In this document: positions 60,266 through 61,070 of the stretch, one piece after another | How the letters are laid out: each line of letters opens with the position of its first letter | How positions within the stretch are numbered: position 1 is the stretch's first letter | Source: Escherichia coli | GTDB taxonomy: Bacteria > Pseudomonadota > Gammaproteobacteria > Enterobacterales > Enterobacteriaceae | Reading direction: 5' to 3' (one strand) | Assembly (NCBI RefSeq): GCF_050320075.1 | Contig: NZ_CP190018.1 | DNA length: 64,000 nucleotides | Position numbers and translations under genes: made by a program | Notes under the pieces: generated by a model | Seen by the model: the letters and a program-made list of their open reading frames with translations, nothing else | What the model was told of the DNA's origin: nothing | Database searches by the model: none

Positions 60266-60350
60266 GGTGGGGTTCCCGAGCGGCCAAAGGGAGCAGACTG
60301 TAAATCTGCCGTCATCGACTTCGAAGGTTCGAATCCTTCCCCCACCACCA
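60266..60350 (+). tRNA. tyrT: tRNA-Tyr (anticodon GUA), 85 nt with encoded CCA
   Basis: ggtggggttcccgagcggccaaagggagcagactgtaaatctgccgtcatcgacttcgaaggttcgaatccttcccccaccacca; anticodon loop ctgtaaa. Confidence 0.95.
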
Positions 60351-60384
60351 TCTCAAGCATTACCTCAAAATTTGAATTACCCCT

Positions 60385-60469
60385 GGTGGGGTTCCCGAGC
60401 GGCCAAAGGGAGCAGACTGTAAATCTGCCGTCATCGACTTCGAAGGTTCGAATCCTTCCCCCACCACCA
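60385..60469 (+). tRNA. tyrV: tRNA-Tyr (anticodon GUA), second tandem copy
   Basis: 85 nt, identical in sequence to the first copy; separated from it by a 34-nt spacer. Confidence 0.95.
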
Positions 60470-61004
60470 TCACTTTCAAAAGTCCGTGAACTCTCAAACG
60501 AATCCGCGATTAAATATTCTGCCCATGCGGGGAAGGATGAGAAGCTTCGACCAAGGTTCGACTCGAGCGCCAGCGAGAGAGCGTGGCCGCAGGCAACGAC
60601 CCGAAGGGCGAAGCGCGCAGCGCTGAGTAATCCTTCCCCCACCACCATAACTTTCAAAAGCCCCGGAATTCTCAAACGAATCCGCAATCAAATATTCTGC
60701 CCATGCGGGGAAGGATGAGAAGCTTCAACCAAGGTTCGACTTGAGCGCCAGCGAGAGAGCGTTGCCGCAGGCAACGACCCGAAGGGCGAAGCGCGCAGCG
60801 CTGAGTAATCCTTCTCCCACCACCATCACTTTTCAAAAGTCCGTGAACTCTCAAACGAATCCGCAATTAAATATTCTGCCCATGCGGGGAAGGATGAGAA
60901 GCTTCGACCAAGGTGCGACTCGAGCGCCAGCGAGAAAGCGTTGCCGCAGGCAACGACCCGAAGGGTGAAGCGCGCAGCGCTGAGTAATCCTTCCCCCACC
61001 ACCA
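60470..61004 (+). repeat. rtT: Three tandem 178/179-bp tRNA-derived repeats distal to tyrV (rtT RNA / tpr region)
   Basis: Units 60470..60647, 60648..60825 and 60826..61004, each ending with the tRNA-Tyr 3' segment aatccttc[c/t]cccaccacca; a partial fourth start follows. Confidence 0.85.
60525..60626 (+). CDS. tpr: Arg-rich protamine-like small ORF (Tpr-like), 33 aa, in repeat unit 1
   Basis: Hand translation [33 protein letters not shown]; unit 2 copy has a premature stop, unit 3 copy is a 28-aa variant. Whether it is translated cannot be judged from sequence. Confidence 0.4.
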
Positions 61005-61070
61005 TCACTTCCTGTAAATACTCAAAACCTGTTACTCCGAGCTAATTCTACCCAATGGCACCGCGTTTAC

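Follow-up and report, generated by a model that had tools for sequence, protein, structure and literature searches.

The rtT/tyrT locus, which lies at and beyond the tRNA-Tyr genes of the tyrT operon, has been described in Escherichia coli since the late 1970s. In K-12, the order of the locus is purU, tyrT, tyrV, repeats, and narI, and the repeats consist of a 178-bp unit that closes in the 19-nt 3' end of tRNA-Tyr. Strain MG1655 has two features annotated at this site, the RNA gene rttR (b4425) and tpr (b1229), the latter labeled a protamine-like protein. RtT RNA reportedly affects the stringent response (Bosl and Kersten 1991), and this is the only published RtT phenotype of which we are aware. 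A second RNA of this general kind is the 3' external transcribed spacer of the glyW-cysT-leuZ operon, which Lalaouna and colleagues are said to have described in 2015 as an sRNA sponge. It resembles RtT in being a by-product of the transcription and processing of a tRNA operon that persists as a discrete molecule and may act on other molecules. RtT differs from it in being tandemly repeated and multihelical and in terminating with a duplicate of the tRNA 3' end, and we know of no Hfq dependence or sRNA targets for RtT. The third system to be considered is that of islands and prophages, for which a direct repeat of a tRNA 3' end is the usual scar of integrase-mediated insertion (attL/attR). RtT shares with these elements a direct repeat of about 19 nt of the tRNA 3' end downstream of a tRNA gene.

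We analyzed a locus of this type in a window of 64,000 nucleotides of E. coli DNA. We put the probability at about 85% that the region is the tyrT-tyrV tRNA-Tyr operon with its 3'-distal array of RtT (rttR/"tpr") elements and that the product under selection is RNA. As in K-12, the tRNA-RtT locus is flanked by purU and narI. A consensus scan identified a tyrT promoter-like site on the plus strand at positions 60189 to 60216 (TTTACA, 16 nt, TATGAT), with 10 of 12 consensus matches, a TG preceding the -10 hexamer, and a GC-rich stretch directly 3' of the site. We take this to be the classical tyrT promoter; its expected transcription start lies about 42 nt upstream of the first tRNA. The two tRNA genes that follow on the plus strand, at 60266 to 60350 (tyrT position) and 60385 to 60469 (tyrV position), were both found by ARAGORN as tRNA-Tyr(GTA) and are identical at 85 of 85 nucleotides, as the initial annotation had claimed. 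The GTA-anticodon cloverleaf was recovered independently with the Rfam tRNA model (53.4 bits), and the first gene is also labeled tRNA-Tyr in the RefSeq annotation of a strain with an identical sequence. The genes are separated by a 34-bp spacer at 60351 to 60384, delimited by alignment with a K-12-type locus. On the other side of the array, the minus strand carries narI (61189 to 61866) and, at 61149 to 61170, the intrinsic terminator hairpin of the convergent narGHJI operon.

The repeats adjoin the second tRNA-Tyr gene without a gap. Tandem Repeats Finder reported an array at 60451 to 61010 with a period of 178, 3.1 copies, 93% matches, and a score of 1013. The three direct repeats that had been noted from the sequence were recovered, all on the plus strand, at 60470 to 60647 (178 nt), 60648 to 60825 (178 nt), and 60826 to 61004 (179 nt), with pairwise identities of 92.7 to 96.6%, and the start of a fourth unit is indeed present as its first 6 nt, TCACTT, at 61005 to 61010, where the array ends. 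The tRNA-like ending of each unit had also been described correctly. Units 1 and 3 close with AATCCTTCCCCCACCACCA, identical to the final 19 nt of the tRNA, and unit 2 ends in the same sequence with a single C>T change (CCTTCTCCC) that preserves the closing stem of the RNA as a G.U pair. The 178-bp unit is composed of a poorly conserved, C-rich and G-poor spacer of about 46 nt, which occupies 60470 to 60515 in unit 1 as judged by composition, and a conserved core of 132 nt, located at 60516 to 60647, 60694 to 60825, and 60873 to 61004 in the three units. This pattern of tRNA genes, repeats, and mini-ORFs is far beyond chance.

The array is an already known array of noncoding RNA, and the recognition of it as the tyrT-distal rtT/tpr region was borne out by three sources. 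The Rfam RtT model RF00391, for which the gathering score is 45 bits, matched all three units over model positions 1 to 130 of 130, with scores of 131.6, 127.0, and 131.2 bits. E. coli CFSAN061763 is 100% identical over window positions 60100 to 61200, and RefSeq annotates this strain with two tRNA-Tyr genes and three RtT sRNAs between purU and narI, each of the latter worded as "RtT sRNA, processed from tyrT transcript". The MG1655 annotation of rttR and tpr at the homologous site agrees with both. In MG1655, the annotated rttR begins 8 nt past the end of tyrV and extends for 171 nt to the tRNA-like CCA, and by homology the equivalent RNA in the window would be 60477 to 60647.

The window is not a copy of the K-12 locus. 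Its units differ from those of K-12 at a few positions, for example in a Cys>Gly codon in unit 1, and K-12 carries an extra, divergent RtT copy between tyrT and tyrV that is absent from the window. This inter-tRNA copy is identical to the distal type at 113 of 134 aligned positions and is without the ATG. The tyrT-tyrV spacer is consequently 209 bp in K-12 versus 34 bp in the window, where the three units are distal. Alignment with the K-12-type locus showed that the 34-bp spacer is the last 34 bp of the 209-bp spacer, and the two loci differ by a 175-bp segment bounded by 19-nt tRNA 3' copies. Because K-12-type strains have these 34 bp as well, after their inter-tRNA RtT, a query spanning the 34-bp-spacer junction could not separate the architectures, and the counts given here were obtained with a query of the flanks only. 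The initial annotation had suggested a comparison of repeat number across strains, and among 51 evenly sampled E. coli genomes we found from 0 to 6 RtT units and from 1 to 3 tRNA-Tyr genes, with the length of the locus changing in steps of about 178 bp. In other genera, the RtT 3' end matches the local variant of tRNA-Tyr in 17 of 18 and 19 of 22 cases. The 175-bp difference, the 178-bp steps, and the tracking of the local tRNA by the 3' ends all support the earlier proposal that duplication is anchored on the tRNA 3' segment, and they show an array that grows and shrinks through recombination, for which either the 19-nt tRNA 3' copies or entire units serve as the substrate.

Such variability could also be read as that of a functionless tandem repeat, a minisatellite regenerated beside tRNA genes by unequal recombination. 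Copy number within E. coli runs down to strains that have no RtT at all, so that RtT must be dispensable in at least a subset of conditions, and a unit of one strain contains an internal expansion of a 14-nt sequence to seven copies. We nevertheless consider this explanation quite improbable, since recombination within a genome cannot account for base pairing that is kept between genera. Indeed, the 132-nt core is conserved across 73 Enterobacterales loci, from Escherichia to Pantoea, Serratia, Xenorhabdus, and Acerihabitans, while the neighboring spacers have diverged too far to be aligned. In these 73 cores, 17 base pairs are changed on both sides, compared with 6.1 ± 1.5 in shuffled alignments and 6 to 11 in controls in which the structure was slid; none of 500 shuffles reached 17. 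Paired cells make up 90% with the structure in place versus 35 to 46% when it is slid. The compensatory changes are distributed over four helices, P1, P3, P4, and P6, with 4 to 5 pairs in each, well above the controls. For helix P2, neither the local hairpin nor the long-range pairing of the Rfam model showed compensatory changes in the 73 cores. RNAalifold on a MAFFT alignment missed P4 and P6 through local misalignment, and for that reason an explicit structure was scored instead. The folding energy of the single sequence is not unusual (z = -1.17), and the RNA is GC-rich. Taken across the Enterobacterales, these substitution patterns indicate that RtT RNA is under structural selection.

The core folds into a multihelix RNA whose closing stem, 10 bp long, is formed by GGGGAAGGAU and the tRNA-derived AUCCUUCCCC. 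The stem leaves a single-stranded tail, CACCACCA, that ends in the tRNA's own ACCA, and beyond the ACCA of each unit the trailer found after tyrV recurs. Where RtT is of the Tyr type, its 5' arm is almost perfectly complementary to 22 nt of the tRNA T arm and acceptor 3' strand, an antisense relation that was significant against shuffled sequences (0 of 2,000). A separate candidate, RtT as the 3' half of a tRNA whose T loop has received an insertion, was rejected; the direct T-arm similarity on which it was based (CTTCGA..AGGTTCGA) gave a local alignment score of 18 that 297 of 2,000 shuffles also reached and is not significant.

RtT occurs in about 100 species-level Enterobacterales loci, nearly always directly 3' of tRNA-Tyr. 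In the genome pattern search, 17 of 119 matches were chance matches inside coding sequences. In rare relatives, the upstream tRNA is tRNA-Pro or tRNA-Gln, and it is the 3' end of this tRNA that the relatives carry. The tRNA-Pro-linked form was found in two organisms that are about 80% identical in the region, and each of its units has an intrinsic terminator hairpin in place of the C-rich spacer. In the Pro- and Gln-linked relatives, both strands of the closing stem are retailored to the local tRNA 3' end, as is the neighboring anti-T-arm segment of one unit. A metagenome scan for RtT at other tRNAs yielded mostly the Tyr type, with one new tRNA-Pro locus (L248); its sole tRNA-Gln locus (L142) came from the contig already represented by L087.

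The co-variation of the closing stem with the tRNA copy, seen in the Tyr variants and in the Pro and Gln types, points to selection on an RNA stem and not to a passive scar. It bears on the idea that the repeats are relics of an integrative element, whose site-specific insertion at the tRNA-Tyr 3' end duplicated 19 nt and whose decayed insert was later amplified. The resemblance of the repeats to the usual integrase scar suggests such an origin, as does a 7-kb, 7-gene island that in about 14% of E. coli genomes has its start exactly 6 nt beyond the CCA of the last RtT, that is, at the point where the array ends in the window at 61005 to 61010. However, neither the locus nor the island contains an integrase or mobility gene, the phage collection contains RtT in a single mislabeled chromosomal contig and nowhere else, and of 72,556 plasmid records just 26 contain it, all of them nonmobilizable and several of chromosome size. 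Unlike the tRNA 3' repeats of islands and prophages, those of RtT enclose a conserved structured RNA, the 5' strand of which pairs with the tRNA copy. We give this account very little credence, and at most it would explain the origin of the array, not its maintenance.

The remaining question was whether the Arg-rich mini-ORF within the unit encodes a protein. The three ORFs were present on the plus strand as described, comprising 33 codons plus a stop in unit 1 (60525 to 60626), 13 codons followed by TGA in unit 2 (60703 to 60744), and a 28-codon variant in unit 3 (60882 to 60968), such that an intact ATG-initiated ORF of about 29 to 33 codons exists in unit 1 only. The unit 1 ORF is the counterpart of MG1655 tpr and shares its reading frame. 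The MG1655 tpr is a 29-aa version that begins at the second ATG (60537 in the window). Read from that ATG, the unit 1 ORF is presumably one residue apart from the K-12 Tpr sequence, with a Gly at the position of the K-12 Cys; a K-12-type strain has a 33-aa ORF whose tail is the 29-aa Tpr sequence. That tpr is a functional protamine-like, Arg-rich peptide, and the unit a dual-function RNA or a small-protein gene, would fit with the 33-codon ORF of unit 1, with the "protamine-like protein" label of b1229, and with the long version (at least 28 codons) seen in 8 of 14 sampled E. coli strains, a 24-codon variant being present in one more. We regard it as highly improbable in light of the comparative data. 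The frame is interrupted in units 2 and 3 of the window, and the same holds for several lineages of E. coli and for the majority of other genera. Codon 6 of the tpr frame is TAA or TGA in 53 of 73 loci, length differences that are not multiples of three occur within the ORF span in 49 of 73, and variability by codon position (0.159, 0.143, and 0.148; P = 0.91) shows no codon periodicity over the 73 loci. At least 24 codons are kept in only 28 of 160 elements, and these long ORFs are split between two different frames over the same conserved nucleotides.

The comparison of ORF integrity across strains, likewise proposed at the outset, showed that the long ORF is present in some E. coli strains and lost in BL21, O157:H7, RM9387, and 11A20CPO008, where 13 codons or fewer are intact in the tpr frame. 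The substitutions that create the stops are compatible with wobble pairing in the RNA. In unit 2, the truncating C>T converts a C-G pair of helix P3 to U.G, and in unit 3, the TGA arises from GGGCGA>GGGTGA, a variant common in other genera. Both ATGs of unit 1 lie in or beside the 5' strand of the closing stem, and the sole Shine-Dalgarno-like sequence, AAGGA, directly touches the second ATG with zero spacing. No NCBIfam model matches the tpr peptide. The literature on rttR, tpr, and small-protein profiling offered passing mentions only, with no evidence for translation of tpr in the main text of the small-protein literature examined. Very probably, the "protamine-like protein" is a chance ORF inside a structured RNA. 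The coding status that the initial annotation had left uncertain is thus largely answered by the comparative data, in that the frame is not conserved.

With RNA as the probable product, the anatomy of the array suggests how it would be made. Transcription from the tyrT promoter would read through both tRNA genes into the repeats. Since each unit repeats the tRNA 3' end and its trailer, tRNA 3'-processing would release the units as discrete RNAs, via an endonuclease cut in the trailer followed by exonuclease trimming to the structured CCA end, and each transcribed unit would persist as a stable molecule. The 171-nt extent of rttR in the MG1655 annotation, from 8 nt after tyrV to the tRNA-like CCA, fits this proposed release. 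A terminator scan of the region found no plus-strand intrinsic terminator after the tRNA-RtT array, and C exceeds G in the spacers of 125 of 135 elements. In the absence of such a terminator, the unstructured, C-rich spacers probably load Rho, which would limit the number of units transcribed. The terminator hairpins of the Pro-linked units imply that Rho loading is not general to the RtT family. We infer the processing and Rho steps from the anatomy, from the MG1655 annotation, and from the older literature (Kupper 1978, Rossi 1981, and Bosl and Kersten 1991). RtT RNA could aid 3' processing or termination of its operon, or it could act elsewhere in the cell as a mimic of the tRNA 3' end.

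The identification itself adds nothing new, as the locus is in Rfam and RefSeq, and the value of the analysis is in the side questions that it settles. RtT has more helices than the Rfam model encodes, and the Pro- and Gln-linked relatives suggest a way in which RtT adapts to a new host tRNA. A broader and speculative notion, which we think unlikely, is that RtT is a portable 3' module of tRNA operons and no peculiarity of tRNA-Tyr, representing a family of RNAs, made by the tRNA-processing machinery, that mimic tRNA 3' ends or are directed against tRNAs. If that were true, RtT RNAs could act as a decoy for, or a sensor of, the factors that recognize tRNA 3' ends, the stringent response being one conceivable setting. 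The natural polymorphism of E. coli, with 0 to 6 units and 1 to 3 tRNA-Tyr genes, provides ready-made deletion and expansion alleles for testing RtT.

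Two tRNA-Tyr(GTA) genes were called by ARAGORN at 60266-60350 and 60385-60469; they lie 34 bp apart and are the same at 85/85 nucleotides, as the initial annotation had proposed. They are followed by a tandem array that Tandem Repeats Finder places at 60451-61010, with a period of 178 bp, 3.1 copies, 93% matches, and a score of 1013. The three units occupy 60470-60647 (178 nt), 60648-60825 (178 nt), and 60826-61004 (179 nt), show 92.7 to 96.6% identity to one another, and are succeeded by six bases, TCACTT (61005-61010), that start a fourth unit, in agreement with the earlier description of three direct repeats and a partial fourth. 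Units 1 and 3 close with AATCCTTCCCCCACCACCA, the last 19 nt of tRNA-Tyr, and unit 2 closes with the same sequence carrying one C>T change, so a copy of the tRNA 3' end does terminate each unit as claimed. The ATG-initiated ORFs of units 1, 2, and 3 have 33, 13, and 28 codons, respectively, and their peptide sequences match those first listed.

The array is real and already known, and its initial assignment to the tyrT-distal rtT/tpr region was correct. Full-model matches to the Rfam RtT family (RF00391) were obtained at 60516-60647, 60694-60825, and 60873-61004 with 127 to 132 bits, where the family's gathering score is 45. E. coli strain CFSAN061763 is 100% identical over window positions 60100-61200, and its RefSeq annotation lists purU, two tRNA-Tyr genes, three copies of "RtT sRNA, processed from tyrT transcript," and a convergent narI. 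In MG1655, the homologous place is occupied by rttR (b4425, 171 nt), which starts 8 nt after the second tRNA gene, tyrV, and contains the 29-codon tpr (b1229); its 3' end coincides exactly with the tRNA-like CCA that closes the first unit.

A promoter-like site (TTTACA, 16 nt, TATGAT) precedes the operon at 60189-60216. No plus-strand intrinsic terminator was found 3' of the array; the hairpin at 61149-61170 is part of the convergent nar operon, and a REP-like palindromic element, CCTGTAGGTCGGATAAGCGAAGCGCATCCGACAA, lies at 61085-61130, between the array end and the narI terminator. A 165-codon ORF with a TTG start (60190-60687, minus strand) runs opposite to the tRNA genes and repeats, and in MG1655 the doubtful ychS (b1228) is antisense to the later units; neither looks like a gene, and both are apparently by-products of the GC-rich repeat. 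Elsewhere in the window, Rfam matches include the enterobacterial sRNA STnc180 (13562-13764, minus strand, 201.6 bits) and the trp operon leader (27025-27118, plus strand, 93.1 bits).

An explicit structure for the core, numbered from 60516, was tested on an alignment of 73 Enterobacterales cores. Helix P1 pairs positions 14-23 with 115-124 (GGGGAAGGAU with AUCCUUCCCC), P3 pairs 47-53 with 58-64 and has two non-Watson-Crick positions (G.A and A.G) in most sequences, P4 pairs 67-73 with 77-83, P5 is a short CCC/GGG hairpin, and P6 pairs 97-101 with 105-109. Changes on both sides were found at 17 pairs, compared with 6.1 ± 1.5 in column shuffles, none of 500 reaching 17, and with 6 to 11 when the 3' partners were slid; 90% of cells were paired, versus 35 to 46% in the slid structure. 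P1, P3, P4, and P6 each contribute four or five compensatory pairs. The Rfam consensus encodes P3 only in part and does not include P6. Across the alignment the P2 region is invariant, and it does not discriminate between a local hairpin and the long-range Rfam pairing.

The reading frame of the mini-ORF, in contrast, is not conserved. In 53 of 73 loci codon 6 of the tpr frame is a stop (TAA or TGA), length differences that are not multiples of three fall inside the ORF span in 49 of 73, and variability at codon positions 1, 2, and 3 is 0.159, 0.143, and 0.148, respectively (P = 0.91). Among 160 distinct elements, 76 have a stop after MRSFD, in 27 the conserved GGATGAGAA motif offers no in-frame ATG, and at least 24 codons are retained in only 28, which use two different frames over the same conserved nucleotides. 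Comparison across 14 sampled E. coli strains, which the initial annotation had called for, gave a long ORF (at least 28 codons) in eight and a variant of 24 codons in another; at most 13 codons of the tpr frame are intact in BL21, O157:H7, RM9387, and 11A20CPO008, and one strain lacks RtT entirely. Both ATGs lie within or beside the 5' strand of P1, and neither has a properly spaced Shine-Dalgarno sequence. The substitutions that create stops in units 2 and 3 convert a C-G pair to U.G or represent a variant common in other genera. These comparisons lead us to conclude that the RNA is what selection acts on; tpr is very probably an ORF that occurs by chance. The coding status had earlier been left uncertain; the comparative evidence now makes a strong case for a noncoding reading.

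The array differs from that of K-12-type strains, which carry an extra, divergent RtT between tyrT and tyrV in a 209-bp spacer. The 34-bp spacer of the window is identical to the final 34 bp of this longer one, and the 175-bp difference, comprising 43 nt of spacer and the 132-nt inter-tRNA RtT, is flanked on both sides by one 19-nt tRNA 3' sequence. A single recombination or slippage event between the 19-nt copies is enough to interconvert the two architectures. The proposal that duplication was anchored on the tRNA 3' segment gains from this boundary, and the comparative evidence supports recombination as the mechanism for the array.

Repeat number, another comparison suggested at the outset, was surveyed using only the 1-kb flanks as a query; 5,423 genomes matched, and 60 were taken at even steps down the ranking. 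In the 51 with both flanks close together, RtT units numbered zero (2 genomes), one (11), two (14), three (11), four (12), or six (1), hence 0 to 6, and tRNA-Tyr genes numbered one to three per locus in the sample. More than 1.5 kb separates the flanks in 9 of the 60, a class of 750 of the 5,423 complete E. coli genomes (about 14%). IS4 is inserted at the locus in two genomes of the sample; APEC O18 and N66 carry an IS4-family transposase within the purU-tyrT-RtT-narI interval (about window 60100-61200). In the one genome inspected from the class with widely separated flanks, E. coli strain 9 (L006:630-7640), a seven-gene lipid-type cluster replaces the 184-bp segment between RtT and narI (corresponding to window 61011-61188). 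The first base of the cluster directly follows CCA TCACTT, 6 nt past the last RtT CCA, and the replaced segment runs to the narI stop codon. The cluster encodes an acyl-CoA desaturase, a sterol desaturase family protein, a PAP2 phosphatase, an F390 synthetase-related protein, an MBL-fold hydrolase, an NAD-dependent epimerase, and a KAS III-like protein, with no integrase. In strain 11A20CPO008 (L131:1560-1840), about seven copies of the 14-nt motif GAGCGTCAGCGAGA in the P3 region lengthen one unit by about 100 nt and create a spurious 67-codon ORF.

Scanning a single genome from each species for the pattern gave 119 loci, of which 17 were chance matches inside coding sequences and the others RtT. 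Hosts include Citrobacter, Enterobacter, Klebsiella, Salmonella arizonae and diarizonae, Kluyvera, Buttiauxella, Pantoea, Serratia oryzae, Xenorhabdus, Acerihabitans, Edaphovirga, and other Enterobacterales. Loci have one to six tandem copies, nearly always directly after tRNA-Tyr(GTA), in two widespread layouts, tRNA-tRNA-RtT(n) and tRNA-RtT-tRNA-RtT(n); copies located between tRNA genes are a separate conserved subtype with GGGTGAGAACC and no ATG. The RtT 3' end matches the local tRNA-Tyr variant (CTCCC, 17/18; CCGCC, 19/22), which indicates concerted evolution of tRNA gene and repeats. RtT is effectively absent from phage records and was found in only 26 of 72,556 plasmid records, none of them mobilizable and several chromosome-sized; it is therefore passed on together with the tRNA locus and does not spread as a mobile element. 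Five Citrobacter and Trabulsiella loci (L007, L012, L045, L047, and L096) have a same-strand partial RtT fragment (profile positions about 82-169) 33 to 38 nt upstream of the first tRNA-Tyr gene, at the expected place of the operon promoter or leader. A contig labelled Chryseobacterium sp. 18061 (L086) has a typical enterobacterial locus with two tRNA-Tyr genes and two RtT copies, and that record is probably contaminated or mislabelled.

Rare relatives follow other tRNAs, accounting for 2 of about 100 loci in genomes and for 2 among the 120 metagenome loci listed. Members of RF00391 follow tRNA-Pro(TGG) in two organisms that are about 80% identical in the region, Enterobacter sp. Ag1 (L013:3090-3480, 72.6 bits) and a metagenome contig (L248, reverse complement 1770-2200), and tRNA-Gln(TTG) in one Cellvibrionaceae contig (L087, 57.4 bits; L142 is the same contig). 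No such element follows proM in E. coli K-12 (L126). These units close with the last 19 nt of their own upstream tRNA, and the P1 5' strand is altered to match (AGAGGAT with ATCCTCT; GGAAGGAT with ATCCTTCC). Pro-type units each have an intrinsic terminator hairpin in place of a C-rich spacer. The RtT 5' arm, GGGGAAGGATGAGAAGCTTCGA, is an antisense match to a 22-nt stretch of tRNA-Tyr that takes in the T arm and the first part of the acceptor 3' strand; 19/22 positions match (0 of 2,000 shuffles scored as high), and in one tRNA-Pro-linked unit the adjoining segment is antisense to the tRNA-Pro T arm too.

The anatomy of the array, with a tRNA-like single-stranded 3' end and the tRNA trailer repeated after every unit, suggests how it may work. 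Transcription from the tyrT promoter would pass through both tRNA genes and continue into the repeats. Because each unit recreates a tRNA 3' end and trailer, the enzymes that mature tRNA 3' ends would also excise each transcribed unit, in agreement with the annotated ends of MG1655 rttR. Although their sequence is little conserved, the spacers of 125 of 135 elements are C-rich and G-poor, and Rho may load on these unstructured stretches and so set the number of units made. Termination in the repeats is reportedly Rho dependent, and the rtT RNA is said to affect the stringent response.
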